NCBI RefSeq assembly: GCF_000027125.1
Contig: NC_017626.1
Origin: Escherichia coli 042
Lineage (GTDB): Bacteria > Pseudomonadota > Gammaproteobacteria > Enterobacterales > Enterobacteriaceae
Reading direction: 5' to 3' (one strand)
DNA length: 64,000 bases
Shown: one piece after another, positions 11 to 20,591 of the stretch
Layout of the letters: each line of letters begins with the position of its first letter
How positions within the stretch are numbered: the stretch's first letter is position 1
Position numbers and translations under genes: made by a program
The notes under the pieces: generated by a model
Told to the model about the DNA's origin: nothing
Seen by the model: only the letters and a program-made list of their open reading frames with translations
Database searches by the model: none

Positions 11-2320
11 ATGGAGTTATGGATATTTATAGTAGCTATTTATTTGATTTATATTCTTTTTTTCAAAAAGAAGAAAACTAAGTCCGCGGGCTCTTATACT
101 TCCGCTCCTGTGAAAGCACCACCTAAAGAATGGCTTGCTAACAACAAAAAAAATCAGTCTGTAATGCAAAACGAGGACAGCGAAGATGACAATCTGGCTA
201 CGTTTACACTAAGTGGCGGGCGGAATGTCGAATACAGCATAACAGCCACTCAACGCCAGAATTTCTCAAAAACTACCGGTGCTTTGGCTCGTTGGATTTT
301 TCCGGGAGAGATGATCACAGTCAGTGGGATAGAGGTTACCGGCGGTCACTTCTATCTTGGGCAGCGTATGAAACCTGCCGGGCATAACTCAGGCGGTTAT
401 TATGATGGCAATAACGAGGCATCGCTAGTTGACGACACGCTTAAAATATACCCCACACCTTACATTTACGAAGATAGTTCATTAGGGTATTGGCCCAGTT
501 TTTCCTCACTTTCACCTGAAGCTCGTGGTGCGTACCTGAGTTGGCTTGCCAGCGACAGATGCGACACTTCCTGCCCAATTGGTTACGTTTTCATTTATCT
601 GTATGGTCTGGAAAGAAGGGCGCTTGTTGACAGCAGGGACAACAATATATCCGACGATGAGTTCTATTCTCTTTTCAAAGAGATCTGCCGTCTCAGATCG
701 GTTTTCAATGAAAACCGATCTTTCCGGAATTACTCATCCCAGTTACTTGAAGCGATGTCCATTCTTCGTCCGAACGAAAATCTTGCAGCAGCTCTCAACG
801 ATGATTCGGAGTTCAGCAATAGCATGCAGTTCAGGTTAATCCTGGCAAAGACTGTTGATACAGGAGCCCCGGTTCCAGCGGATCTGGCTCTGACGTGGGT
901 GACAAACCATGCTGAATACTCATTACGAACCCCCGCCCGCCGCTGTGCGAAAGAATTTGCTGCACTATTTAAACGGCGTTACACCCTTAAATACGGTGAA
1001 GGGATGGTAGTGAAGCCGAATAAAGCGCGTCTGCGTTTAGATTACACGCCTGCAAGTCCCAGTTTGCGAGGTATTCGGCTTCCTGTTCCCGACTTGCCTG
1101 ATCCAGGTGCATTGAAAGGCCCTGTTCAGAAGCTTATGGCCATTGCCGATATATGCACAGGTGAACTGGATGCTTACAGTCGTTACCTTGGTAGAAAAGG
1201 TACTTCAGCAAATGATACCGCTGCAATTTTGTTGCTGCCTTCAGAAATCGTTAACGAAAGCGCAGAAAAAATATTAAGTACATTCAAACACTGGGCTGAT
1301 GACGCAATCCGCAGTAAGGGTGGGATAGTTTCAGTTGCTGACTACTGGTCACATATGAATGCCACCTGTCCGGCGAAGATCAATAAAAAAGAGGCCGACT
1401 TAATGCAAGCCTTTGCACAGAAAATGGGATACTGTCTGGCTCCTGACCCCTATCACCACCACGTAAAGGCAGATGTCGATGGTGTACTTGTTTTATTCCC
1501 TGCTGGTGAAAGAGGACGTTTCTCACCTTCTCCTGAATTTATCACAGCTGTATTGACGCTCCGATTAGGTTCGGTAGTCGCCTTGATTGACAATTCTCTC
1601 GATCAAGCCGAACAGAAAGTGCTTGAGAATGCCATCAACAACAATGCCAGCTTCAGCGATGATGAAAAGCGCTCTCTGCACGCATATTTAACGTGGCAGC
1701 TTCATACTCCGGCGAATATGACGGGAATGAAAAGCCGGATTGAATTACTCGGTGCAGCGGAAAAATCAGCTGTGGGTAAGGTTATCGTTAGTGTCGCTTG
1801 CTCTGACGGCAGAATTACGCCTGCCGAAATCAAACAGCTTGAGAAGATTTATACAAGCCTGGGACTGGATCCCTCATCCGTATCAAGCAATATCCATCAG
1901 CATTCCGCAACTGAAACTGCTCTCGTTTCATCTGTACCAGCTAATCAGTCGACGGCAGGGTTTACGCTGGATGCCAACGTACTTGCCCGCCACGAATCTG
2001 CCACTGATGATGTTCGTAAATTACTGAACTCAATTTTCACTGAAGAAGAACCAGAACAACCAGAAAGCGCTCCAGCCTCATTAACCGGGGAAGGGGGACT
2101 TGACTCCGCTCATAGCCAACTTTATCGCAGGTTGCTGGAGAAAGAACAATGGTCCAGAAAAGAGGCGACAGAGTTGTGTAGTAACTGGAACCTGATGCTC
2201 GGCGGTGCGCTTGAGGTGATTAACGATTGGTCCTATGCGGTGGTTGATGCACCAGTGCTGGAAGATGCTGATGATCACATTTGGATTGACCTGGAAATAG
2301 CCAAAGAATTAGAGGGTTAG
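11..2320 (+). CDS. Large protein with N-terminal hydrophobic helix; candidate SngA-like (TerB-N/TerB-C type) first gene of a Shango-like operon
   Basis: 769-aa ORF, ATG at position 11; stop is 4 bp before the next gene start. N-terminus MELWIFIVAIYLIYILFF is a predicted TM helix. TerB domain assignment is from recalled architecture, not a computed domain hit. Confidence 0.5.
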   Translation: MELWIFIVAIYLIYILFFKKKKTKSAGSYTSAPVKAPPKEWLANNKKNQSVMQNEDSEDDNLATFTLSGGRNVEYSITATQRQNFSKTTGALARWIFPGEMITVSGIEVTGGHFYLGQRMKPAGHNSGGYYDGNNEASLVDDTLKIYPTPYIYEDSSLGYWPSFSSLSPEARGAYLSWLASDRCDTSCPIGYVFIYLYGLERRALVDSRDNNISDDEFYSLFKEICRLRSVFNENRSFRNYSSQLLEAMSILRPNENLAAALNDDSEFSNSMQFRLILAKTVDTGAPVPADLALTWVTNHAEYSLRTPARRCAKEFAALFKRRYTLKYGEGMVVKPNKARLRLDYTPASPSLRGIRLPVPDLPDPGALKGPVQKLMAIADICTGELDAYSRYLGRKGTSANDTAAILLLPSEIVNESAEKILSTFKHWADDAIRSKGGIVSVADYWSHMNATCPAKINKKEADLMQAFAQKMGYCLAPDPYHHHVKADVDGVLVLFPAGERGRFSPSPEFITAVLTLRLGSVVALIDNSLDQAEQKVLENAINNNASFSDDEKRSLHAYLTWQLHTPANMTGMKSRIELLGAAEKSAVGKVIVSVACSDGRITPAEIKQLEKIYTSLGLDPSSVSSNIHQHSATETALVSSVPANQSTAGFTLDANVLARHESATDDVRKLLNSIFTEEEPEQPESAPASLTGEGGLDSAHSQLYRRLLEKEQWSRKEATELCSNWNLMLGGALEVINDWSYAVVDAPVLEDADDHIWIDLEIAKELEG

Positions 2321-2323
2321 TGA

Positions 2324-3640
2324 ATGTCTGTAACACGTATAAGAGTGAAAGAGCGCGACGCTATCATTCAGTCACTTAAGTCGGGAGTAACGCCAAGAAT
2401 AGGTATTCAGCATATCCAGGTTGGCCGCGTGAATGAGATAACCGCCCTCCATCAGGATATTGAACGGATTGCTGATGGCGGGGCAAGCTTCAGACTTATC
2501 ATTGGTGAGTACGGTTCCGGGAAAACATTCTTTTTAAGTGTTGTACGGTCTATTGCGTTAGAGAAGAAGCTGGTCACGGTCAGTGCAGACCTTTCTCCCG
2601 ACAGACGTATCCACTCATCGGGAGGTCAGGCTCGTAATCTCTACTCAGAGCTTATGAAAAATATGTCCACCAGAAACAAACCAGATGGCAATGCATTACT
2701 TAGCGTTGTGGAAAGGTTTGTTACTGAGGCAAGGAAGGAAGCTGATGCGAACGGCTCCCTGGTCTCATCCGTTATTCATAAACGCCTTGCTGCTTTGTCA
2801 GATATGGTGGGAGGATATGACTTTGCGAAGGTCATTGACGCATTCTGGCGCGGGCATGAGCAGGATAACGAAACCTTAAAATCCAATGCTATTCGCTGGT
2901 TGCGGGGCGAGTACACCACAAAAACTGATGCCCGTAATGATCTTGACGTCCGAACGATTATCTCAGACGCCTCGTTCTATGATTCTTTGAAGTTGATGAG
3001 CCTTTTTGTCCGTCAGGCAGGCTATGCCGGACTTTTAGTTAGCCTCGACGAGATGGTGAACCTCTTCAAGTTGAATAATACGCAAGCGAGAACGGCCAAC
3101 TACGAACAAATTTTGCGGATTCTGAATGACTGCCTGCAAGGCTCCGCCGAAAATATTGGTTTTATCCTCGGGGGGACGCCAGAATTTCTTTTCGATCCAC
3201 GTAAGGGGCTCTACAGCTATGAAGCGCTCCAGTCGCGTCTGGCAGAAAACCGATTCGCACAGAAAGCTGGCGTGATTGACTACTCGTCCCCCACGCTGCA
3301 TCTTGCCAGCCTCACTCCTGAGGAACTGTATATTTTACTGAAAAACCTTCGTCATGTTTATGCTGGTGGAGATCCCGTAAATTATCTGGTGCCAGATGAT
3401 GCTCTGACCGGGTTTCTGCATCACTGCAGCAAAACCATCGGAGATGCTTACTTTCGAACTCCCCGCAATACCATAAAAGGTTTTCTGGATATGCTGGCTG
3501 TGCTGGAACAAAACAGAACGATGAACTGGCAACCCCTCATTGAGGGGGTGGCGATTGAAGAAGACAAGCTCAGCGATATGGATGATGCCATTGTGGAGGA
3601 AAGTGATGACGATGATGGCCTGGCGAATTTCAGATTATGA
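2324..3640 (+). CDS. P-loop NTPase (Walker A GEYGSGKT, Walker B-like LLVSLDEM); candidate SngB-like ATPase
   Basis: 438-aa ORF with clear Walker A motif; stop overlaps the downstream helicase start (ATGA overlap at 3637-3640), implying translational coupling. Confidence 0.6.
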   Translation: MSVTRIRVKERDAIIQSLKSGVTPRIGIQHIQVGRVNEITALHQDIERIADGGASFRLIIGEYGSGKTFFLSVVRSIALEKKLVTVSADLSPDRRIHSSGGQARNLYSELMKNMSTRNKPDGNALLSVVERFVTEARKEADANGSLVSSVIHKRLAALSDMVGGYDFAKVIDAFWRGHEQDNETLKSNAIRWLRGEYTTKTDARNDLDVRTIISDASFYDSLKLMSLFVRQAGYAGLLVSLDEMVNLFKLNNTQARTANYEQILRILNDCLQGSAENIGFILGGTPEFLFDPRKGLYSYEALQSRLAENRFAQKAGVIDYSSPTLHLASLTPEELYILLKNLRHVYAGGDPVNYLVPDDALTGFLHHCSKTIGDAYFRTPRNTIKGFLDMLAVLEQNRTMNWQPLIEGVAIEEDKLSDMDDAIVEESDDDDGLANFRL

Positions 3641-5835
3641 GTAGTGCCTACAATAGTCTTGATCCCCGTGTCCGTAAGTGGGTTTATAAGCAGGGCTGGT
3701 CATCCTTAAGGCCCTTGCAGGAAAGCTCTATTCCGGCAATTTTAGCCCGTGATCGTGATGTACTAATTAGTGCAGGTACAGCTGCGGGTAAAACAGAGGC
3801 TTTCTTTCTTCCTGCCTGTTCAGCGATTGCAGATCTCACTGGTGGATTTGGCATTATCTATATCAGTCCATTGAAGGCATTAATTAACGATCAACACCGT
3901 CGTCTTGAGAGTCTTGGTGAAGCCCTGGAAATGCAAGTGACGCCCTGGCACGGGGATGTACCACAAAGCAAAAAGAAGAAAGCACGGACAACCCCTTCTG
4001 GCATCTTACTTATCACACCTGAATCACTTGAGTCTTTGCTCATAAACTCATTGGGTTGGCTCAAACAGGCGTTTTCTTCTGTGGCATACATTGTTATTGA
4101 TGAGTTCCATGCTTTTATTGGCTCAGAGCGTGGTATACAGCTGCTTTCTCTGCTTAACAGAATTGACCATGTGCTGGGACGCCAGTTGAATCCAGTTCCC
4201 CGTGTCGCGTTGAGTGCCACACTGGGAGAGCTGGAAAAAGTACCAGAACTATTGCGCCCGGATAAGAGATTACCTTGTGAAACGGTAACAGACAGTAATA
4301 GCAAAGCCACAATACAGGTTCAGGTTAAAGGTTATCTTGAGCGGGTGCCCGAAAAAGGAAAAGAGCTCCAGAGCTCTGCTGAACAGCTCGTCTGCGCGGA
4401 TATTTTCAGGCTCTGCCGTGGCGATTCCCACCTAGTCTTTGCTAACAGTCGAAAGCGTACTGAAAGCATAGCGGCAACACTGAGCGACATGTGTGAAGCA
4501 AATGTCGTTCCTAATGAATTCTTTCCTCATCATGGTTCCCTTGCAAGGGAGTTGCGTGAGGCGCTTGAAGCCCGACTGCAGAAAGGGAATTTGCCCACAA
4601 CCGCTGTTTGTACAATGACTCTGGAGCTGGGTATTGATATTGGTAAGGTGCAGTCTGTCATACAAGTGACACCTCCGCATTCTGTTTCCAGTCTGCGTCA
4701 ACGCATGGGACGTTCAGGGCGGCGCGATTCCCCATCGGTGCTGAGAATGTTAATTACTGAACCTGAACTTACCGCAACCAGCAGCATTGTGGATCATTTA
4801 CGGCTGCAGTTGGTTCAGGCGATGGCAATGATCAGGTTGATGATCTCTAAGCGCTGGTTCGAGCCTGCAGATATCCGGCAGAAACATTACTCCACACTAC
4901 TACACCAGATCTTGGCTATTACTGCGCAATGGGGAGGTGTTCGTGCCGATCAGCTCTGGTCACAACTTTGCCAGACAGGTCCGTTCCGGAATGTGGATAT
5001 AAATGACTTCAAAAGTCTGCTTAAACATATGGGGACATGTGGCCTGCTCACTCAACTAACCAGCGGTGAAATAGTTGTCGGGGCTGAGGGGGAGAAACTG
5101 ACTAATCACTACACGTTTTATACCGTATTCAATACACCTGAGGAGTTTCGCATTGTAACGGGAAACCGAACTCTTGGCACAGTGCCTGTAGACTCCCCAC
5201 TTTTGCCGGAGCAGCACATCATCTTCGGCGGACGGCGCTGGAAAGTGACAGAGATCGAGGTTGAAAAAAAGGTTATCTATGTTGAGACGACTAAAGGCGG
5301 TCAGCCGCCACTATTCAGTGGTAGCGGGATGTCTGTTCATGATGTTGTTCGCCAGGAAATGCTCACTATCTACAGGGAAAATGATTACCGTATCGCGGTA
5401 GGCAACAAGAGAGTCGATTATGCTGATGCCGCAGCCAGAAGCCTCTTCGCGGAAGGAAGTGACAACTTCCAACGCTACAATCTACAAAATGACTGTTTTA
5501 TTGCCAGTGGTCAGAACTGCTACGTGATCCCGTGGATGGGGGATAAAATTGTCAATACAATTACGTCCCTGCTTATACGTTGTGGCTTTAAAGCCAGTTC
5601 ATTTGCAGGTGTGATAGAGGTAGAGGACTCAGGCGTTGCCTCTGTCCAGCGTGCACTTAAGAAAATGCTATTGTCGGGGCTACCTTCAGAGTTTGAGCTT
5701 GCTGCAGTTGTTCCCGACAAGTATCTGGATAAATATGACGAGTATTTACCAGAGACTTTGCTTGCTAAAGGGTATGGGGCACAGGCGTATGATATAGAAG
5801 GAACGTGCATCTGGCTGCAGAAACACCTTCAGTAG
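3637..5835 (+). CDS. DExH-box superfamily 2 helicase with ~300-aa C-terminal extension; candidate SngC-like helicase
   Basis: 732-aa ORF with Q-motif/motif I (SAGTAAGKTEAF), motif II (VIDEFHAF), motif III (LSATLG) and helicase-C motif (QRMGRSGR). Confidence 0.7.
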   Translation: MSSAYNSLDPRVRKWVYKQGWSSLRPLQESSIPAILARDRDVLISAGTAAGKTEAFFLPACSAIADLTGGFGIIYISPLKALINDQHRRLESLGEALEMQVTPWHGDVPQSKKKKARTTPSGILLITPESLESLLINSLGWLKQAFSSVAYIVIDEFHAFIGSERGIQLLSLLNRIDHVLGRQLNPVPRVALSATLGELEKVPELLRPDKRLPCETVTDSNSKATIQVQVKGYLERVPEKGKELQSSAEQLVCADIFRLCRGDSHLVFANSRKRTESIAATLSDMCEANVVPNEFFPHHGSLARELREALEARLQKGNLPTTAVCTMTLELGIDIGKVQSVIQVTPPHSVSSLRQRMGRSGRRDSPSVLRMLITEPELTATSSIVDHLRLQLVQAMAMIRLMISKRWFEPADIRQKHYSTLLHQILAITAQWGGVRADQLWSQLCQTGPFRNVDINDFKSLLKHMGTCGLLTQLTSGEIVVGAEGEKLTNHYTFYTVFNTPEEFRIVTGNRTLGTVPVDSPLLPEQHIIFGGRRWKVTEIEVEKKVIYVETTKGGQPPLFSGSGMSVHDVVRQEMLTIYRENDYRIAVGNKRVDYADAAARSLFAEGSDNFQRYNLQNDCFIASGQNCYVIPWMGDKIVNTITSLLIRCGFKASSFAGVIEVEDSGVASVQRALKKMLLSGLPSEFELAAVVPDKYLDKYDEYLPETLLAKGYGAQAYDIEGTCIWLQKHLQ

Positions 5836-5851
5836 ACTGGATATGTAGTCA

Positions 5852-5884
5852 GGGTATAAATAAGTATTTATACCCTTATTTTTT
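5852..5884. terminator. Rho-independent terminator between the convergent helicase gene and the minus-strand cassette
   Basis: Perfect 11-bp inverted repeat gggtataaata / tatttataccc with a 2-nt loop, followed by ttatttttt. Confidence 0.5.
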
Positions 5885-6206
5885 ACTTACCTGTGGACTT
5901 ACTTGGCTTTAATCCCGGAGTATTGCCAGGAGTATCTTTATTATCGCGTCGGCGTTGATCCGGTTTTCCTGTTGACTTAGCAATTGGTTTTGGACCTGGT
6001 TTTAGACCCATGATAGTTATCCTTCGAGATGTAAGAGGAATGCCCTCAACATTGGTATATTCTATACTGAGAAATTTTTCAATGGGAATGTTCAACGGCC
6101 GAATGATTAACTCGATATTGTGAGCAATGTCTTTTTTTGGCACAGAGCGAACCGTTAGATTGCGCGTATTTTTATGGAAGGAGATCATCCAATAACGGTT
6201 ATTCAC
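5883..6206 (-). CDS. Hypothetical ORF (low-complexity, Pro/Lys-rich C-terminus); possibly a gene remnant
   Basis: 107-aa ORF; 5' end region (MISFHKNT) carries one copy of a 25-bp repeat also found at 10940-10964; 3' end overlaps the terminator T-tract. Confidence 0.25.
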   Translation of the reverse strand: MNNRYWMISFHKNTRNLTVRSVPKKDIAHNIELIIRPLNIPIEKFLSIEYTNVEGIPLTSRRITIMGLKPGPKPIAKSTGKPDQRRRDNKDTPGNTPGLKPSKSTGK

Positions 6207-6270
6207 CGATCTCCTTTATGGTAATACGAACCTGTTTTTTTAATATATAGAAAAATTACTCCGACATGTT

Positions 6271-6915
6271 TTATCTTTTTGAAATCAGGACATTTACCAA
6301 CTCACTTAAAACTCTCTTTTGTTCTTCATCCTGAAGATATTGAATCCGGAATTTAATCTCTTCTGCAACCCGCCTTGTATCGGACTCATTAAGTATTTTT
6401 GTTATTCGCTGTCTCTGATGTTCAGGCTGGTCTTCCATATTTCGTAAAACCAGATGAAATAATATATCATAAAGTGCGCAATGCCATGAATAACCATCAT
6501 TGGTTAGAATAAGCTCCCAAACCCGCTCCTGTTCGGCAATAAGCTGCAGAACAAAGGATTCAACCTGTTCTGATTGTCCGGGGACAACCCGGTATAGCGG
6601 CGCAATCACAGCAAAAAACAGTTCATTTAGCCAGGATTCCGCCTCTTTCTCGCTCCTGAAAGATGGACAGTTCTGTATTCTTCGTTCGTATTCACGGGTA
6701 ACCTGCTCCGGAATATCCTCCGGCGGTGTCAGCCACTTATTCCTGAGCAATATACTGGTTGACGGATGGCAGCAGGCTATTTCAGCAATAATTTCACGTA
6801 ATGCCTCCGGGCTGAATTTCTTCAGCTGATTGTAGTGCTCCCGGGTAAAACCATGATCATCGCATAAAAGTTGCCATGTCATTGATATACTGTTTGCCAT
6901 TCCTTTCTTCATCAT
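6271..6915 (-). CDS. Hypothetical protein, last gene of the ibrAB-containing cassette
   Basis: 214-aa ORF co-directional with and 20 bp downstream of the PerC-like ORF; no family recognised by eye. Confidence 0.45.
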   Translation of the reverse strand: MMKKGMANSISMTWQLLCDDHGFTREHYNQLKKFSPEALREIIAEIACCHPSTSILLRNKWLTPPEDIPEQVTREYERRIQNCPSFRSEKEAESWLNELFFAVIAPLYRVVPGQSEQVESFVLQLIAEQERVWELILTNDGYSWHCALYDILFHLVLRNMEDQPEHQRQRITKILNESDTRRVAEEIKFRIQYLQDEEQKRVLSELVNVLISKR

Positions 6916-6935
6916 TAATACCTGTTACCTGAATA

Positions 6936-7244
6936 TCAACAGACCGGTGTACCTTTTCTGAATACCTCCCCGGACGGACTGGCAATCCCCATTCGCCTCA
7001 GCGTGGCATCTGCAGCTTTCGCCACTTCGCTGATATCCAGCTTTTCAGGTAGCGGCGGGGACGATATCTGCGCCAGGCAATAATTCCTGCGCAACAACAA
7101 CCACTCCCGTTGTGCTTCTGTACATTCAACATTTCCCATAACAAAAAGCCAGCGGGCGGAAGCTCTGCGCCAGCAACCCGCAGCCTCCAGCTTCTGTGCA
7201 ACCATGTCTTCCACGACTTCCGGGGTACTCTTTTTCCTGCTCAA
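6936..7244 (-). CDS. Small PerC-like putative transcriptional regulator
   Basis: 102-aa ORF; segment LEAAGCWRRASARWLFVM resembles the PerC/Pch family core as recalled. 40 bp downstream of the ibrB-like gene. Confidence 0.4.
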   Translation of the reverse strand: MSRKKSTPEVVEDMVAQKLEAAGCWRRASARWLFVMGNVECTEAQREWLLLRRNYCLAQISSPPLPEKLDISEVAKAADATLRRMGIASPSGEVFRKGTPVC

Positions 7245-7283
7245 AACATTAACTCACTGAAATAATATACATATATGACGGTC

Positions 7284-7922
7284 TCAGCGAACCGTCCATG
7301 CCGGACTGAAATCCTCTTCCAGAAACAGCTCCGTCAGCCCGCTAATCTGTTTCAACCTGAGAACTTCATCCTGGTCCATACCCAGCTCCGTACCAATACG
7401 TTCATCCGTCCAGCCCAGCCGCGACAGGTCCCTGACAATATCAGACATTGAAGTTATCTGGTGCTTCCCCCTGGCCCGGTTATGTCTAATGGTTGCAGCA
7501 ATACGTGAGGCCTGTCCCTTTCTTTCCGGATTAATACAGGTCACTGGCAACCAGCCCTTCAGGCGTTTTCCCGTACCTGCTTCCCTGCCCAGTAATTGAC
7601 GATGAAAACCATCCACGACCAGATAATGCTCCTTCTCTTCCGAGACAACCACAGGCTGCGTGAACCCATCCTGCTCCAGTGAATGTTTCAGCAGTTTCTT
7701 CTCACCCGGCGCCATGACATTGGGGTTATAATCGTTGGCCACCACCTCATCTGCTTTCACCCACAGCACACAGTCCACAGGCTCCTGTGCAAATGGACTG
7801 ACCTCATGAAGCACCCTGCGCAGATGATTCAGGGCCTGTATGGCCTCTTCTTCTGGTCGTTCCTGGCTGAAGTACTGACGAATCATGTTGCTCAGTATCT
7901 CCGGTGTCACAGAATCCCCCAT
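7284..7922 (-). CDS. ibrB: ParB/Srx-fold (ParB-like nuclease domain) protein, IbrB-like
   Basis: 212-aa ORF with a ParB-like core (YLVVDGFHRQ); start overlaps the upstream ibrA-like stop by 16 bp. Confidence 0.7.
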   Translation of the reverse strand: MGDSVTPEILSNMIRQYFSQERPEEEAIQALNHLRRVLHEVSPFAQEPVDCVLWVKADEVVANDYNPNVMAPGEKKLLKHSLEQDGFTQPVVVSEEKEHYLVVDGFHRQLLGREAGTGKRLKGWLPVTCINPERKGQASRIAATIRHNRARGKHQITSMSDIVRDLSRLGWTDERIGTELGMDQDEVLRLKQISGLTELFLEEDFSPAWTVR

Positions 7923-9139
7923 TCCTTCCTCCTTTCTTTCATACGCTGCAGATAACGTTCATAGTGCCGGGGTTTGTTCGGACTGAAGGAGAGGGTACGG
8001 CACCAGAAATCATTCTTTATGAGAGTCTTACAGATACGTCGCCAGGACGGAATATCCCGGCTCCCCAAGTCATTCTCCTGTTCATCCGGGATGTCATCCG
8101 GGAAGCCCCGCGTCTGATACCAGCGCAGATAGACAGCTATCTTGTTGCGGTAATGTTCTGCCGTTCTTTCCGGCATCACATCCAGCAGAAACATCGCATA
8201 GCTGCGCCAGGTATGATGGGCTGGTTTTGATATGCGCTTACGCAGGGCAAAATAAGCCCCGCTTTCATTGGCATAAAGTGCCCCGCTGGCAGCCCCTGAC
8301 ACCCGCTCACACATCCTGGCCCAGGTTTCCGGCTCCAGAACATGGTAAAGCCACAGTCCCTTACGTTGTTCAGGACCAAAAGGTTCACAGACACGCATGT
8401 TGCGTAACGGTACGCCGGCACGGTACATCAGGTCATACAGGGGATTGTAGATGGCACGGGTTCTGGTGTGATATATCCAGATATCACGAGTTTTCCAGTC
8501 ATACAGCGGATACATGGTGTAGTAAAACCCTTCAGGCGATGCCGTGGTCCAGGGCTTATCATCGGCGTATCTCAGTTTGCGCTGGGATACCAGTCCCATG
8601 AACCGGTTAAGGGACTCATCCGCACGGACACCGGTCAGTACTGCCACACCACATTTATTGTCTGCAAACCAGGAAGAAAATGCCGGAACAAATTCTTCAA
8701 ACGTCATGGCATACCGGTAAAAGGGAAAATACGCCATATCTGTAATGGCCCCCTCCGGTGGCTGGCGAACCCACTTCACACCAGACTCCCAGCATATCCA
8801 CTCCGGCTGAAACTGAGAAACACCGTTTACCGTGGTCAGGGGAAGTGCCACCCAGTAAAAGGTTTCCGTCACATCATGGTACATTTCCCGCATCTTCTGA
8901 ATATGTTCAATGGTGCACTGGTACTGAGCCTCCCAGTCAATGAACAGTACAGAGAAACGACGTTTTTTCCTGCGGGCCACATCAGCCAAAAGATGGAAAA
9001 GCACGGTGGAATCTTTACCACCGGAAAAAGAGAGACAAACTGATGGAAATGTTTCAAAAATCCACTCAATACGAGCAATTGCTGCACGCAGAACATTCTC
9101 TCCAGTAAGGACTTTCTCCGTTAAAAAATTATCATTCAT
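7907..9139 (-). CDS. ibrA: PAPS reductase-family PP-loop ATP-pyrophosphatase-like protein, IbrA-like
   Basis: 410-aa ORF with PP-loop motif SFSGGKDST near the N-terminus; size and pairing with a ParB-like gene match the ibrA/ibrB pair. Confidence 0.75.
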   Translation of the reverse strand: MNDNFLTEKVLTGENVLRAAIARIEWIFETFPSVCLSFSGGKDSTVLFHLLADVARRKKRRFSVLFIDWEAQYQCTIEHIQKMREMYHDVTETFYWVALPLTTVNGVSQFQPEWICWESGVKWVRQPPEGAITDMAYFPFYRYAMTFEEFVPAFSSWFADNKCGVAVLTGVRADESLNRFMGLVSQRKLRYADDKPWTTASPEGFYYTMYPLYDWKTRDIWIYHTRTRAIYNPLYDLMYRAGVPLRNMRVCEPFGPEQRKGLWLYHVLEPETWARMCERVSGAASGALYANESGAYFALRKRISKPAHHTWRSYAMFLLDVMPERTAEHYRNKIAVYLRWYQTRGFPDDIPDEQENDLGSRDIPSWRRICKTLIKNDFWCRTLSFSPNKPRHYERYLQRMKERRKEWGIL

Positions 9140-9279
9140 TTATTTTTACTTTATGCAAAAGAAACCTGTTTATGCTTTCAACATATAGCAACAAACATTA
9201 AATGACGTTTAATTAGCCACTACTAAAATTGCTTACTTTCATCCTGATGAACATATAAAACATATTACAAACATATTTA

Positions 9280-9987
9280 TCAATAAAGAATCTTTATTGA
9301 TGATACTGGCACTGTAACAATCCCATTGAGAGAACGATTTATAACCACCCACTCATGTGGTTCAACCAACCAGGAGTTTACATGTTTTGAATCAATAAAA
9401 TCATGGCAATATAATATATCTGAAGCAGGTATATCCAACTCCAGTTTAACACGTCCGTGATATTCATCCGCATCATTAAAAGAATTCAATATATCCATCT
9501 CAAAAGAAATCACATCCTCCCCTCTTATCTCTGCTGTTTCTTTTAACTCAGCAATCGTATCTGCATACCTGCCATTAAGTTTCCTGCCTAACTGGATAGT
9601 TGTGATTTTCTTTTCGTTGCAGCATCGCTGAGTATGTTCATATATAGCCATCACTTCCTGGCAAATACAATCAACTTCTATATCACTCAAAGAATTATAT
9701 ATGTCCATAACTTTTCTCTCATAATGCAAAAAAAGATTAAATATACGATAATGAGAGAGCAAATCAGAATTTGTTACTTTCGTTAAGAATAAAGTTAATA
9801 AAACATAACCTACCTGTTTACTACCATTAAACCCAATAAAATCACTTCTCACATCTCCTTTCAATCTACCAGTTCCGATACAACGAGCTAACAATTCACT
9901 CCTGACATTATATTTACCATTCATATTCACCATACTATTCGAAACAACAGACGAACATCCAAAAGCGCTTAAACACTCCACAAACAA
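9280..9987 (-). CDS. Hypothetical protein (AT-rich gene upstream of ibrA)
   Basis: 235-aa ORF, markedly lower GC than ibrA; no recognisable motifs. Confidence 0.4.
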   Translation of the reverse strand: MFVECLSAFGCSSVVSNSMVNMNGKYNVRSELLARCIGTGRLKGDVRSDFIGFNGSKQVGYVLLTLFLTKVTNSDLLSHYRIFNLFLHYERKVMDIYNSLSDIEVDCICQEVMAIYEHTQRCCNEKKITTIQLGRKLNGRYADTIAELKETAEIRGEDVISFEMDILNSFNDADEYHGRVKLELDIPASDILYCHDFIDSKHVNSWLVEPHEWVVINRSLNGIVTVPVSSIKILY

Positions 9988-10040
9988 ACTATCTCACCGA
10001 ATAAATTGCAACACTCCCCTTACCCCACATCCTAAAGGCT

Positions 10041-10964
10041 TTATATAAAACAGTAAAAGTGAATCAGCTTAACAAATGCATCTTTCATTTGTTTTTGCTG
10101 CTGCTCGCTTCCATTCTGGTTGCGGACTTCACCATAGTGACACAACTGTTCTTCTGCCAGGATATGCCGGTTAAAAGCCTGCATGATGCCAGACACCTCC
10201 GTTTTCAGCTCACTGACCGTCATGTATTTTCCCCGCTGTTCATCCGGACGGTTCAGGCGCTCAGCCAACAGCTGTAAGCGGGTCATGCCTTCGTTCCAGC
10301 CAGTCATCGCCTCTTCCGGGAGCGCACGACTCCTTGCACTCTTCTGCCAGTTATCCACCATTTCCTGAACACGAGGATTGTCGGGGAAAAGTACCATCAG
10401 TTGCTGCAGCAATTGCACACTGCGTTGCAGGTTGTATGCCGGGGGGAATTCTGTCAGTCGCGTTATCTGCTGACCGGAAAGGGTTATCCACTCTGACGCA
10501 TGATTTAACAGTGTTCTGCTGAGCTGCATCATCTGGTCTGCTGAAAGCACATCCGGTGAGGGTGTCAGCAGCGCCCTGAGTTGCTGCTCCGCCGGTGATG
10601 GCTGTGTCAGAAACTGCCATCCCGGAATGGCCACGCAGACCGCCAGCAATGCCGTACAGACACCTGTAACAAACGTTTTCAGAAACGTGAGCGGGGATTT
10701 TTGAAGGAAGAGTGTGGGCTCTGTTTTTGTTTCAGAAACAACATACACCAGACGGGAGTGCGGCAGGGTCTGATGTTCCTGCACATCCGGAGCTTCAAGC
10801 CTGAGTGCCTGCGCCAGTAGCGTTACCGGAGACGATACTTCCCCCTGCACAGGCTGGTTCTCCAGGCGGGTGATATATCCCTTCACCATGGCTTCCGGTA
10901 AAGCCACTTTACTGCTCTGTTTAAGTTCGTGCCAAGCCTGCGTATTTTCATGGAAGGAGATCAC
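10041..10964 (-). CDS. Hypothetical membrane protein; possible C-terminal portion of a VasL-like (ImpA_N + TM) protein
   Basis: 307-aa ORF with one predicted TM segment (TFVTGVCTALLAVCVAIPGW); track start is GTG; overlaps the upstream ImpA_N-like ORF in another frame. Confidence 0.4.
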   Translation of the reverse strand: MISFHENTQAWHELKQSSKVALPEAMVKGYITRLENQPVQGEVSSPVTLLAQALRLEAPDVQEHQTLPHSRLVYVVSETKTEPTLFLQKSPLTFLKTFVTGVCTALLAVCVAIPGWQFLTQPSPAEQQLRALLTPSPDVLSADQMMQLSRTLLNHASEWITLSGQQITRLTEFPPAYNLQRSVQLLQQLMVLFPDNPRVQEMVDNWQKSARSRALPEEAMTGWNEGMTRLQLLAERLNRPDEQRGKYMTVSELKTEVSGIMQAFNRHILAEEQLCHYGEVRNQNGSEQQQKQMKDAFVKLIHFYCFI

Positions 10965-11388
10965 TCAGTGTCTTCAGGAATGTTTCGGTCTGATACAGCA
11001 GGGGCAGGTTGTCACGGTTATCCGGAGGCATGGCCCGGAGCGTTTTTTGCAGACGGTTGAACAGACCGGTAATAATTTCCAGCCGGGAGTGTGTATTCAG
11101 CGGCCACATCACTGACCAGTGATGCCGGGTCAGCGCAGCAATCAGAGCCAGCCCTTCATTCAGACCACTTAACCCTGTTGTATGCATCCGGGCAATGGTG
11201 TACCAGGATGCCGTCTGTAATTCCACGCCATTGTGTTCATACAGACGCAGGCAGAGCGTTTCCACGTAACGCCAGTCCACATCAGGGCGTGCCGGGTGGG
11301 TCAGTTTGCTGATTTCATCGCGCAGGGCAGCATAATCCGGTAATGACCGGGGGTCACCACCGGTTTTCAGTTTCACTTCAGAAGTCAT
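10948..11388 (-). CDS. ImpA_N-like domain protein (TssA/VasL N-terminal domain family); possibly the N-terminal portion of a frameshifted gene
   Basis: 146-aa ORF; pattern DYAALRDEI...DVDWRYVETLCLRL...GLSGLNEGLALIAAL resembles the ImpA N-terminal domain as recalled. Confidence 0.4.
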   Translation of the reverse strand: MTSEVKLKTGGDPRSLPDYAALRDEISKLTHPARPDVDWRYVETLCLRLYEHNGVELQTASWYTIARMHTTGLSGLNEGLALIAALTRHHWSVMWPLNTHSRLEIITGLFNRLQKTLRAMPPDNRDNLPLLYQTETFLKTLSDLLP

Positions 11389-11781: not shown

Positions 11782-13569
<1,788 letters not shown>

Positions 13570-18002: not shown

Positions 18003-18224
18003 CTAGGATGATAATCCTATACCTGAGGGAGACATGGAGGGACTAACCGTCGCAGTCGTTGCCCATGAATGTACTTTATCACCTATATAAGCCCCTGCAA
18101 TAGAACCAAATCCCGGGCTAATAAACGTACCTGCAAGTGAACCAATAGCAATTAATTCTGCCTGCCCGTCATTCCCGTCACCTCCAGATATTTGTTTTAT
18201 TTCATTTTCAGATAGTTTTCTCAT
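18003..18224 (-). CDS. mcmA: Microcin M precursor (double-glycine leader, Ser-rich C-terminus)
   Basis: 73-aa product from internal ATG: MRKLSENEIKQISGG leader then DGNDGQAELIAIGSLAGTF...SPSGIGLSS, matching microcin M as recalled. The 133-aa track ORF is an upstream extension. Confidence 0.8.
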   Translation of the reverse strand: MRKLSENEIKQISGGDGNDGQAELIAIGSLAGTFISPGFGSIAGAYIGDKVHSWATTATVSPSMSPSGIGLSS

Positions 18225-18294
18225 TTCAACACCTTCGCTATAAAATTTGTGAAGAAGTAAAAATTCACGTTTAACCACAACGATAAAAATGTAA

Positions 18295-18441
18295 CTACAA
18301 GTGATAAAAAAACATATATAGATTAAAAAAATTATATCTATAGTAATAACTAAGATATAATGACACCGGAATATAAAAGAACAGATAATTGATAACAAAA
18401 GCAATCACTGTTATTTTTATATCCTTCTTAACCTCCCCCAT
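18295..18441 (-). CDS. Candidate small hydrophobic immunity protein (McmI-like), below the ORF-track size cutoff
   Basis: Hand translation: ATG 8 nt after aaggag gives a 48-aa ORF (MGEVKKDIKITVIAFVINYLFFYIPVSLYLSYYYRYNFFNLYMFFYHL) between the mchF stop and the mcmA start. Confidence 0.4.
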   Translation of the reverse strand: MGEVKKDIKITVIAFVINYLFFYIPVSLYLSYYYRYNFFNLYMFFYHL

Positions 18442-18476
18442 CGACAAAACTCCTTACAAAGTTACACCAGTGGATT

Positions 18477-20591
18477 TTAAATAGAAATAATCCTGTCAAC
18501 AGTTCTCAACGTAGTTTCTCTGTGTGCAATAATCACCCGGGTGATATTCATTTTTTTTATGGCAGCATTCACGAAACGTTCACTTTCTGTATCAAGAGAA
18601 CTTGTAGCCTCATCCATAAATAATATTCCAGGTTTCCGGTATAAAGCTCGGGCAATGAATATACGCTGTTTTTGACCGCCGGAAAGACCTTCCCCCAGTT
18701 CACCTATTAACGTTTCATACCCCATTGGCATTTTCATTATCACATCATGAATATGACTTGCTCTGGCACATTCTGTCATCCATTCGTCGTCTGTTTCTTC
18801 TGCAAACCCACAGATATTTTCACGAATTGATCCTGAAAATAGCCGGTCGTCCTGCATAACACAGGCTATCATACGGTGATAATTATTTATTCCAAGTTGA
18901 CGTATATCCGTGCCATTAACCAGTACTTTTCCACTATCTGGTTCAAACAGTCCACATAATACTTTCATTAATGTGGTTTTTCCGGCACCGGAGGCACCAG
19001 TTATAGCCACACTTTCTCCCGGAGCCACAGACAAATTCAGACCACTGAATACCTGTGCTGACTGGCTGTCATACCGGTAGCTTAAATCAGTGGTTTCCAG
19101 TGAAACCGGGCTCATGTCAGCAACGATTTCAATTTCCGGTTTCTTTTCTTCCTTTTCATGTAGTGCAATATCTGCAATGCGCTCATTATGCAGACTCATT
19201 ATTCTCAGTTGAAGAAGAAAACTGGTCAGCGAAGCAACCCGATCCGAAAACTGCCCACGAAAAGAACCAAATGCCACAAACATCCCTATTGTCATCTGAT
19301 TATCGATCACAAGGCTTGCACCCAGCCATAAAATCGCCACCTGATCACAGGCGGCAACAAAAGTATTTATCCCCCCGAAGAGCAAATCCATCTTGGTTAA
19401 CTTAATACCTGAATTGATCGCATCTATTTTCAGGTTAAGCCAGTGTGTTCCCCGGATCCCAGCCATACCTTGGATTTTTACCGTGGCAATACCATACAGG
19501 CTTTCCATAAAATAGGAGCTGGCCCGGGCCCCCCTGACAAGAGTTTCTTCCGATATTTGCCGGTAATAGCCGTATGTCACCAGACGAATAAGAACGTAAA
19601 CCATGGTAAAACCGAGCACTATCCAGGTAAGATATCCTCCATATAACAGCATCATCACAAAAACACCCACAACCATAATACTGTCCATGATTGCCCCAAC
19701 CACACAGGTGGTAAAGGTGGCCCTCAAAGTGTCAAGGGAGCCAAAACGCGACTGGATATCACCTAATTTACGGCGTTCAAAAAACGCCAGCGGCAGTCTG
19801 AGAAGATGGTTAAACAGACCCGACTGCCACTGTATATTGATGAGCGTGCTCATAACCAGTGAGGACCATGCACGCAGCATACTCACCGCGGCCCTGAGCA
19901 ATATAAAGAACATCAGGCCAGCAGAAATAAGCGTCAGCAGCCCTCTGTCCCCCGCCGGAATCGCATGATCCATAACCAGCTGAGTCCCCACCGGCATTAC
20001 CAGATTGATTGCTTCAATTACAACTGACAGACAGAAAATTTTCGCCAGTGTTCTTTTAATACCGTAAATACTGTTAATCAGTGAACGGAGACTTATGCGG
20101 ATCTGCTGGGTTTCCGCCAGGAATTCACTTCCAGGCCAGACCTCAAGTGCAATGCCCGTAAAATACCGGCTCATTTCCTCCCGACCGAGATATCTTCTGC
20201 CTCTGGCCGGATCATGCAGTACATAACGGTTACGCTTTACGCTGACCAGCACGACAAAGTGACTGAAATCCCAGTGGAGAATACACGGCATTTTGAGGGC
20301 ACCAAGTTCATCCAGCTCCAGTGAAAGAGCCCGGGTGACCATCCCCAGCTGCTCCGCTATTCCATTGATTCCTGCAAGGTTTGCTCCACGGGCCGAGAGA
20401 TTAAACTTCCGGCGAAGAGATATCAGGTCAATATTCTTACCAAAATGACCGCATATCATTGCCAGGCAGGCCAGTCCACATTCAGCGGTCTCCGTCTGAT
20501 GAATAACCGGAACACGACGTCGCCAGCGCATATCAAGCTGATTTATAATTTGTCTGAAACTCCCGTTAGTCATTGAGCGGTCCTGTTGCAC
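18477..20591 (-). CDS. mchF: Microcin ABC exporter with N-terminal C39 peptidase domain (CvaB-like)
   Basis: 704-aa ORF; C39 motif around [18 protein letters not shown], six-TM region, C-terminal ABC ATPase ([17 protein letters not shown]). Confidence 0.9.

Follow-up and report, generated by a model that had tools for sequence, protein, structure and literature searches.

A 64,000-nucleotide stretch of Escherichia coli 042 DNA (RefSeq assembly GCF_000027125.1, contig NC_017626.1; hereafter the window) carries the overlapping genes ibrA and ibrB, which encode a PP-loop enzyme of the phosphoadenosine phosphosulfate (PAPS) reductase family and a protein that combines a ParB/sulfiredoxin (Srx)-type domain with a predicted helix-turn-helix (HTH). 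The pair is the already named E. coli ibrA/ibrB and as such an ordinary find for an E. coli island; its value lies in the biochemistry of what is an ancient and very widespread gene pair of phages, plasmids and islands. The analysis described below narrows the question, as the functional unit consists of exactly these two genes, sulfate reduction and phosphorothioation are ruled out, and IbrB emerges as the more constrained partner. The pair is not a PAPS reductase, a partition ParB or a module of the Dnd or Ssp type. Tentatively, and with somewhat less than even confidence, we favor the view that ibrAB encodes a DNA-directed, nucleoside triphosphate (NTP)-gated adenylylating complex that mobile elements employ for marking or remodeling DNA. 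Should the pair produce a new DNA mark or, alternatively, act as an NTP-gated anti-silencer, this would matter for how virulence genes such as the Eib, fimbrial and siderophore loci are regulated, as well as for the conflict between phages and their hosts.

ibrA and ibrB form the conserved unit

The gene neighborhood of IbrA was surveyed in 79 genome loci drawn from one-genome-per-species contigs, which span Enterobacterales, other Proteobacteria, Bacteroidota, Firmicutes, Opitutales, Lentisphaeria and one Asgard metagenome-assembled genome (MAG), i.e. at least six phyla, and in 80 viral contigs, 78 of which were scored for the presence of a partner gene. An IbrB homologue is found beside IbrA in 76 of the 79 genome loci; in two of the other three, the contig ends. 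In 75 loci, ibrB lies downstream of ibrA on the same strand, and in 72 the two genes overlap or are located within 30 nucleotides (nt) of each other. The partner is likewise present in about 70 of the 78 scored viral contigs, where both gene orders are about equally common. By comparison, the gene for a PerC-family activator and three orphan open reading frames (ORFs), which adjoin ibrAB in the window, were seen solely in the E. coli locus. Because the pair is near-universal while PerC and the orphans are confined to E. coli, the functional unit is exactly ibrA plus ibrB, and the larger "cassette" is an E. coli-specific assemblage. A first-pass annotation of the window, made by reading the sequence, had described the pair within a co-directional cassette of five genes, which as a whole is not a functional unit.

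Two of the orphan ORFs, h214 and h235 (named after their lengths in amino acids (aa)), were therefore dropped as members of the functional unit, being E. coli-restricted or unlinked to ibrAB elsewhere. The first accompanies ibrAB-perC in E. coli O157:H7, N68 and E118 and is otherwise found in E. coli records only. Relatives of h235 with about 30% identity occur on plasmids of Agrobacterium, Pseudomonas and Aliarcobacter (cf. locus L182, 4890-5870), and in the two neighborhoods that were read (Agrobacterium and Aliarcobacter) no ibrAB adjoins them. Hence, h235 is probably a gene independent of ibrAB. Since the h235 homologue of strain N68 is preceded by the gene for an Old-family nuclease, the ORF may be part of a different two-gene unit.

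Clustering of the flanking ORFs revealed a single widely recurring third gene, which encodes an SNF2-family helicase core of about 410 aa. It is positioned directly upstream of IbrA in 12 of the 79 genome loci; of the 80 viral loci, 19 contain it, 14 of them directly upstream. The assignment is based on matches to phrog_62 and to the Pfam families SNF2-rel_dom and Helicase_C, and the genome and viral sets were aligned to each other by hhalign with 100% probability (examples in Table 1). Less frequent companions are a small ORF that precedes IbrA in 14 Bacteroidota loci and matches no Pfam, PHROG or NCBIfam family, as well as an acetyltransferase-like ORF located after ibrAB in a small number of phage loci. 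Among the recurrent neighbors of all 159 loci, there was no gene for a nuclease, a toxin, a methyltransferase, a cysteine desulfurase, a sulfur donor or a DndD/E-like protein.

The pair is also abundant within single species and on mobile elements. A match to the mobile ibrAB was found in 2165 of 5426 complete E. coli genomes (about 40%), and the full 3.8-kb arrangement described below in 423. IbrA-like sequences are furthermore encoded on 869 plasmid records, Klebsiella virulence plasmids among them, with 704 covering at least 80% of the protein, and in hundreds of phage and viral contigs.

IbrA and the sulfur-dependent systems

In Pfam, IbrA is matched by PAPS_reduct (PF01507) in two pieces (E 5e-7 and 7e-7), by the PP-loop family ATP_bind_3 (E 8.5e-5) and by DUF3440 (PF11922, E 1.5e-24), and the combined PAPS_reduct–DUF3440 architecture is precomputed for all 120 homologues listed. 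The family is large, with 1850 clusters at 50% identity matching at E values of up to 1e-3. Closer to home, the protein is about 97% identical to the commonest E. coli IbrA cluster, and identity to the phage PhiR5_2 genes annotated "IbrA" and "IbrB" amounts to 91%.

An alignment of 78 diverse full-length homologues was used to map conservation. The SGGKDS PP-loop (residues 39-44), whose conservation had been singled out beforehand as a critical check, and the PAPS_reduct core are invariant or nearly so. The core residues concerned are D68, E70, G170, R172, E175, S176, R179, P211, D214 and W215, followed by D219, W221, Y231, N232, Y235, D236 and R249. The AlphaFold model (pLDDT 92, pTM 0.90) has a fold near those of adenosine phosphosulfate (APS)/PAPS reductases and CysD. 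A search with the helical C-terminal DUF3440 domain gave no match, and a sequence search of solved structures returned no close homologue for either IbrA or IbrB. Judged by its conserved motif and predicted fold, IbrA is an active-looking ATP pyrophosphatase or adenylyl transferase.

Longer IbrA homologues (P0122, P0167, P0186, P0211, P0233 and P0242) were uninformative, since their extensions are heterogeneous and one resembles a chimera with a UvrA fragment. Similarly, a Rosetta-stone fusion of IbrA and IbrB was discarded as unconvincing, as just two short chimeric fragments (P0230 and P0232) match both profiles.

In the same alignment of 78 sequences, no cysteine is invariant or nearly invariant. 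The most frequent one, at position 98, occurs in 66 homologues and is replaced by alanine in the E. coli 042 protein. Since a conserved cysteine is lacking and the scores against curated models fall far below their cut-offs, IbrA is excluded both as a reductase that depends on a thiol and as an Fe-S sulfur transferase of the DndC type. A role in sulfur assimilation, as a true PAPS/APS reductase or as a subunit of ATP sulfurylase, is suggested by the RefSeq product name "phosphoadenosine phosphosulfate reductase" and by the proximity of the fold to these enzymes, but is hardly credible. Both the cysH model (29.2 bits against a cut-off of 165) and the PAPS_reductase model (34.6 against 254) were rejected along with the CysD models (25-31 bits against cut-offs of 195-413), the catalytic C-terminal cysteine of the reductases is not conserved, and the obligate partner is a predicted DNA-binding ParB/HTH protein rather than CysN or thioredoxin. 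In the case of CysD-CysN, a heterodimeric ATP sulfurylase regulated by GTP, the partner is a translational-type GTPase, whereas IbrA is paired with a ParB/Srx-HTH protein and nothing links it to sulfate.

A second precedent is provided by DNA phosphorothioation, in which a PAPS-reductase-family PP-loop enzyme (DndC or SspD) is likewise encoded beside a ParB/Srx protein such as DndB, and this pair, too, is presumed to act on DNA. On these grounds, the first-pass annotation had drawn an analogy to Dnd and Ssp and had called for searches with DndC, SspD and SspB profiles. IbrA would then correspond to DndC/SspD and IbrB to DndB, an assignment that would be consistent with the shared superfamilies and with weak local DndC matches (PADLOC, E 2.4e-4 over a partial stretch; NCBIfam TIGR03183, E 0.009). 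Against the DndC equivalog TIGR03183, however, IbrA scores 14.9 bits, where the cut-off is set at 290.4. A 4Fe-4S center held by three cysteines, together with a cysteine dyad, defines DndC (PMC10853773). Both features are absent from IbrA, while the DUF3440 domain of IbrA is absent from DndC. Neither NCBIfam (release 20) nor PADLOC-DB (v2.0.0; 5027 models, candidate systems included) yielded a DndB, SspB or DpdB match for IbrB, and the PADLOC Ssp models matched neither protein at E values of up to 0.01. Moreover, no gene for a cysteine desulfurase (dndA/iscS), DndD or DndE is found among the ORFs of the window or the recurrent neighbors of the 159 loci. The profile searches thus returned no qualifying match, and what remains of the analogy is a shared domain rather than membership; a Dnd/Ssp-like function of ibrAB appears very improbable.

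A BREX type 4 assignment was rejected as well. The PADLOC BrxP model matches IbrA with E 2.6e-7, but only over residues 20-98, i.e. the PP-loop region, of a model with 779 positions, and no PglZ or BrxC is encoded nearby.

IbrB and the ParB/sulfiredoxin family

The Pfam ParB_N match of IbrB is weak (E 0.013), while phrog_2159 ("ParB-like partition protein") is matched with E 1.4e-81, and a profile of the IbrB family matches the N-domains of Noc and ParB in the PDB with E 2.4e-7. Together with the Pfam results for IbrA, these matches bear out the PP-loop and ParB-like assignments of the first-pass annotation. IbrB is better conserved than IbrA, with 40-50% identity across phyla and 32 invariant columns. 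The conserved motifs comprise N63, N66-P-N68, D104-G-F-H107-R108 and T144-x-R146-H-N-R-A-R-G-x-H154, followed by an invariant HTH with the sequence GMDxDExLRLKQ. In a profile alignment with Noc and ParB, the first two motifs coincide with box I (NxFQPR) and box II (GERR), and equivalents of all three ParB boxes (I, II and III) are present. In the predicted structure (pLDDT 84), the N-domain is nearest to KorB, SbnI/SerK, PadC, sulfiredoxin and Spo0J, and the C-terminal part to KorB, region 4 of sigma factors and the DNA-binding domains of VirB. From these similarities, IbrB appears to join a ParB/Srx domain for nucleotide binding to an HTH for DNA binding and to represent a distinct subfamily.

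The N-terminal fold, boxes I-III and the adjacent HTH are shared with the CTP switches ParB/Spo0J, Noc, KorB, VirB and PadC. These proteins differ from IbrB in the GERR sequence of box II, which reads DGFHR in IbrB and thereby also differs from the DndB-type motif DGQHR, and in their C-terminal dimerization domain, as IbrB (212 aa) ends after the HTH. A partition ParB of the ParABS type was rejected: TIGR00180 gave no match, a side-match to Noc reached 19.5 bits against a cut-off of 315, and no ParA gene lies near ibrB in the window. Likewise, an inverted-repeat search for a cis site of IbrB produced short, weak pairs alone and no parS-like site, nor could the sequences that precede ibrA in seven copies from E. 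coli, Klebsiella and phages be aligned with each other.

A ParB-like protein in the service of a DNA-modifying enzyme is not without precedent, since DpdB is a ParB-like ATPase that assists such an enzyme, and SNF2-type helicases occur in the wider 7-deazaguanine DNA-modification system (PMC12839542). The catalytic partner there is the transglycosylase DpdA instead of a PP-loop enzyme, and the Dpd models of PADLOC miss both IbrA and IbrB.

A possible DNA-adenylylating complex

In the reading that we favor, IbrA and IbrB would form a complex, in which IbrB binds DNA via its HTH in an NTP-gated manner, as is the case for ParB, Noc and KorB, and positions or activates IbrA at the DNA. IbrA may then move AMP from ATP onto an oxygen of DNA, i.e. 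a phosphate or a base carbonyl, or onto a DNA-bound substrate under release of pyrophosphate. This step is modeled on the chemistry of the family, whose members CysD and flavin mononucleotide (FMN) adenylyltransferase adenylylate sulfate and phosphate, respectively, while DndC presumably acts on the DNA backbone. The CysD-CysN heterodimer (PDB 1zun), an adenylyl transferase driven by an NTPase partner, offers a useful analogy for such a complex. The activated group could subsequently be resolved into a non-sulfur covalent mark or a changed state of the DNA. Conceivably, mobile elements apply ibrAB to their own DNA or to that of the host, which would result in altered gene expression or in DNA protection. 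According to a 2002 study of strain ECOR-9, ibrAB reportedly switches on prophage eib genes, and this effect would then be explained as a downstream consequence of DNA marking or remodeling.

DNA is a likely substrate because the SNF2 helicase recurs beside the pair, and the proximity of the phage-borne copies to terminase/portal or replication genes points the same way. The proposal of the first-pass annotation that the pair acts on DNA or nucleotides is accordingly plausible, with indirect support from the HTH of IbrB and from the recurrent SNF2-like helicase. A bolder version, which we consider doubtful in its full extent, includes the chromosomal paralogue YbdNM of E. coli K-12 (see below). 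IbrAB/YbdNM would constitute an undescribed sulfur-independent nucleic-acid modification machine, in which a ParB/Srx-HTH NTPase delivers a PP-loop adenylyl transferase to DNA and thereby installs a new backbone or base mark that would serve phages, plasmids and islands in anti-silencing or anti-restriction, with the SNF2 translocase and the acetyltransferase-like ORF as optional components.

Several observations weigh against an adenylylating complex that acts on DNA. All steps past ATP binding rest on inference, and the substrate could instead be RNA, a protein or a small molecule. To our knowledge, no unexplained modification signals have been reported in routine PacBio methylomes of ibrAB-bearing E. 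coli, in which the genes may be silent. It is also odd for a mere targeting subunit that IbrB is more conserved than IbrA. Finally, several E. coli copies adjoin adhesin or siderophore operons, a location that would suit a plain regulator equally well.

Gene regulation and the K-12 paralogue

Such a regulator could be envisaged as a transcriptional anti-silencer. A VirB/KorB-like IbrB would load onto DNA in an NTP-dependent manner and displace H-NS from AT-rich acquired genes, while the DNA itself stays chemically unchanged. IbrA would do no more than provide the nucleotide ligand, sense or regulate it, or act on IbrB by modifying it. Activation of eib is the sole phenotype attached to ibrAB, reportedly in the 2002 study and likewise in the database names, which read "Co-activator of prophage gene expression IbrA/IbrB" and "Immunoglobulin-binding regulator". 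This explanation would also account for the PerC-family activator gene after ibrB and for the E. coli and Klebsiella copies that lie beside F4 fimbriae, another fimbrial operon, iroBCDN or TonB receptors. It is less easily reconciled with the conserved catalytic PP-loop partner, which is obligate in every phylum, even where H-NS-type silencing is inapplicable, i.e. in lytic phages, Gram-positive bacteria and the Asgard MAG. IbrB, in addition, lacks the C-terminal dimerization domain of ParB, KorB and VirB, carries DGFHR in place of GERR in box II, and is not accompanied by a conserved DNA site upstream of the operon. On balance, we regard anti-silencing without DNA modification as unlikely, though worth serious consideration.

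Regulation of a related operon has been studied in E. coli K-12 MG1655, whose core paralogue ybdN-ybdM (L181, 4748-6570) encodes proteins with 58% and 56% aa identity to IbrA and IbrB, respectively, in the same overlapping A-then-B gene order. The ybdN-ybdM operon is repressed by CitR (YbdO), the gene of which is in turn under the control of H-NS (PMC9068703), and this hierarchy would likewise be consistent with an anti-silencing role. In contrast to ibrAB, which moves on islands, prophages and plasmids, ybdNM is vertically inherited at a fixed site in Enterobacteriaceae (ybdL ... citR-dsbG-ahpCF). The ParB/sulfiredoxin-fold gene ybdM thus lies beside genes for a peroxiredoxin and a sulfenic-acid reductase. 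The linkage to dsbG/ahpCF is confined to Enterobacteriaceae and may be a coincidence.

As of 2022, YbdM was described as "completely uncharacterized"; cells that over-express it lose about 10% of their growth rate (PMC8764527). A literature search on IbrA/IbrB, DUF3440 and YbdN/YbdM found no mechanistic study, which agrees with the statement of the first-pass annotation that the biochemical function is unresolved. The name that it had given to the pair is likewise borne out by the identity to named proteins and by the RefSeq annotation as IbrB-like. IbrA and IbrB of ECOR-9 belong to the same family and have the same architecture, with no structural difference; the copy of E. coli 042 is set apart by its position in a pheV-type island, together with a PerC gene and beside the anti-phage system Shango.

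Genomic habitats and anti-phage defense

In phage genomes, ibrAB occupies quite different positions. In Firmicutes (pro)phages, the SNF2-IbrA-IbrB triad is inserted between the lysis/lysin genes and the attachment site or lysogeny module, a slot that is the usual place of accessory "moron" genes and is typical of this three-gene variant as a whole. Flavobacterium phage FCL-2 and one metagenomic phage carry the pair between terminase and portal or within the head genes, phage Gaia inside the replication module, and one lambdoid prophage in the nin region. In Mycobacterium phage Obutu, it immediately precedes the large terminase gene. There (L096, 1-2717, genes 1-5), two ParB-like genes, gp1 and gp5, flank the IbrA-like gp4, and this arrangement occupies the place where a small terminase would be expected.

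About 11 E. coli and Klebsiella contexts were sampled by hand. Three of them have defense-type neighbors, namely Shango in the window, a Mokosh-like helicase in O157:H7 86-24 (L098, 4332-6500; MkoA, E 5.5e-44) and an Old-family nuclease in N68 (L100, 4579-6027; E 2.5e-47). Five contexts adjoin fitness or virulence loci, among them iroBCDN on a Klebsiella virulence plasmid, F4 fimbriae, another fimbrial operon and TonB-dependent receptors, and two are accessory positions in a coliphage or prophage. Because ibrAB-perC-h214 has different defense-type neighbors in each strain, the flank of the cassette behaves as a swap site for defense genes.

These neighbors raise the question of whether ibrAB is itself an anti-phage system, as the first-pass annotation had implied. 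IbrAB, in some cases together with the SNF2 helicase, could sense or modify invading DNA or deplete nucleotides and thereby lower the phage yield. Besides the three defense-type contexts, the position of the Firmicutes triad would fit such a function, as the slot between lysin genes and attachment site is one in which prophage defense genes are common. Furthermore, SNF2 helicases and ParB/Srx NTPases occur in known defense systems (PMC10853773), as also reflected by side-matches to the NCBIfam models DrmD and ZorD. The defense-linked clusters listed in a 2026 preprint include, without characterization, operons in which a nucleoid-associated protein is combined with a PAPS reductase and ParBc proteins. 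Yet, no defense model of PADLOC v2 or NCBIfam release 20 covers IbrA or IbrB, with the weak PP-loop side-matches of IbrA to BrxP and DndC as the only signals and no PADLOC match at all for IbrB, PerC, h214 or h235. A recurrent nuclease or toxin effector beside the pair is missing as well. It is a core chromosomal operon in K-12 and relatives, and it resides inside phage packaging or replication modules, including that of FCL-2. The evidence from neighborhoods amounts to three hand-sampled loci without an enrichment statistic, while most sampled E. coli and plasmid copies do not adjoin defense genes. The claimed defense link is thus suggested by neighborhood in 3 of the about 11 contexts, whereas other copies reside in phages or have fimbrial, siderophore or receptor loci as neighbors, and we consider a dedicated defense function to be improbable, more so than the anti-silencing described above.

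The locus in E. coli 042 and its surroundings

In the window, ibrAB is embedded in an unbroken run of six co-directional minus-strand ORFs at 5883-9987 (Table 1), as evident from the ORF listing and from reading of the sequence. All ORFs given by the first-pass annotation are present on this strand, while the sixth one at the end of the run had been missed. With its ATG placed 16 nt before ibrA ends, ibrB overlaps ibrA by 16 nt. The intergenic gaps further downstream measure about 40-80 nt (ibrB-PerC), 20 nt (PerC-h214) and 64 nt (h214 to the 107-aa ORF), and no convincing terminator was seen between the genes of the run. The hairpin that follows the last ORF is likely a bidirectional terminator, as judged by a consensus scan for terminator-like sites.

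Table 1. Features of the ibrAB region and surroundings in the E. coli 042 window, and examples of SNF2 helicase genes from other loci.
Sequence	Feature	Position	Strand	Length	Remarks
Window	Shango anti-phage system, sngA/sngB/sngC	11-5835	+		complete; convergent with the ibrAB run
Window	hairpin	5851-5876		11-bp stem	where the Shango helicase gene and the 107-aa ORF converge; likely bidirectional terminator
Window	orphan ORF	5883-6206	-	107 aa	last gene of the co-directional run
Window	orphan ORF h214	6271-6915	-	214 aa	20 nt downstream of the PerC gene
Window	PerC-family small transcriptional activator gene	6936-7244 (RefSeq 6936-7205)	-	102 aa (RefSeq 89 aa)	downstream of ibrB
Window	ibrB	7284-7922	-	212 aa	ParB/Srx-type nucleotide-binding domain, then helix-turn-helix (predicted)
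Window	ibrA	7907-9139	-	410 aa	PP-loop ATP pyrophosphatase, PAPS-reductase family (predicted), with C-terminal helical DUF3440 domain
Window	orphan ORF h235	9280-9987, longest ORF (RefSeq 9280-9924)	-	235 aa (RefSeq 214 aa)	AT-rich; 140 nt upstream of ibrA
Window	type VI secretion remnants	10041-11388	-		separate ibrAB from the NERD helicase
Window	NERD+UvrD-type helicase gene	11782-13569	-	595 aa	PADLOC C3a187, E 4.5e-140; RefSeq "3'-5' exonuclease"
Window	microcin locus	18003-20591	-		class IIb microcin precursor and MchF peptidase/ABC exporter
L092	SNF2 helicase gene	6772-8019			example
L084	SNF2 helicase gene	552-1781			example
L163	SNF2 helicase gene	4776-6014			example

The base composition of the run is mosaic, with a G+C content of about 52% in the ibrAB pair, about 34% in a 1-kb window over the upstream ORF h235 and about 42% in a 1-kb window that spans most of the two downstream orphan ORFs. 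The PerC ORF is matched over its full length by Pfam PerC (PF06069, E 6e-36, model positions 2-89 of 90) and also by phrog_994 (E 2.7e-16). No match in Pfam, PHROGs, NCBIfam or PADLOC was obtained for h214, h235 or the 107-aa ORF, and an Rfam scan of 5700-10200 at E values of up to 0.1 returned no RNA family. Several complete E. coli genomes share the 3.8-kb stretch with 99% identity; in them, it resides within an island that adjoins tRNA-Phe and an integrase gene and where RefSeq names its products "phosphoadenosine phosphosulfate reductase", "IbrB-like domain-containing protein", "PerC family transcriptional regulator" and hypothetical proteins. Given this identity and the strong profile matches to long ORFs, the run is not a chance pattern.

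The surroundings are indeed a cluster of defense-type genes, as the first-pass annotation had it, with Shango on one side of the run and the NERD/UvrD helicase on the other. Shango is supported by PADLOC matches to SngA, which contains a TerB domain (E 8.6e-100), the ATPase SngB (E 3.8e-186) and the helicase SngC (E 1.2e-277). The sole Ssp match of the region is a marginal one of SspC to SngB. The NERD+UvrD helicase may be a single-gene defense candidate. The type VI secretion remnants, suggestive of the decay of an older island, consist of a fragment with a VasL domain and a 146-aa N-terminal fragment of TssA/ImpA (TIGR03362, E 6e-23). The precursor encoded in the more distant microcin locus has a double-glycine leader (MRKLSENEIKQISGG...) and is annotated as "colicin V family bacteriocin".

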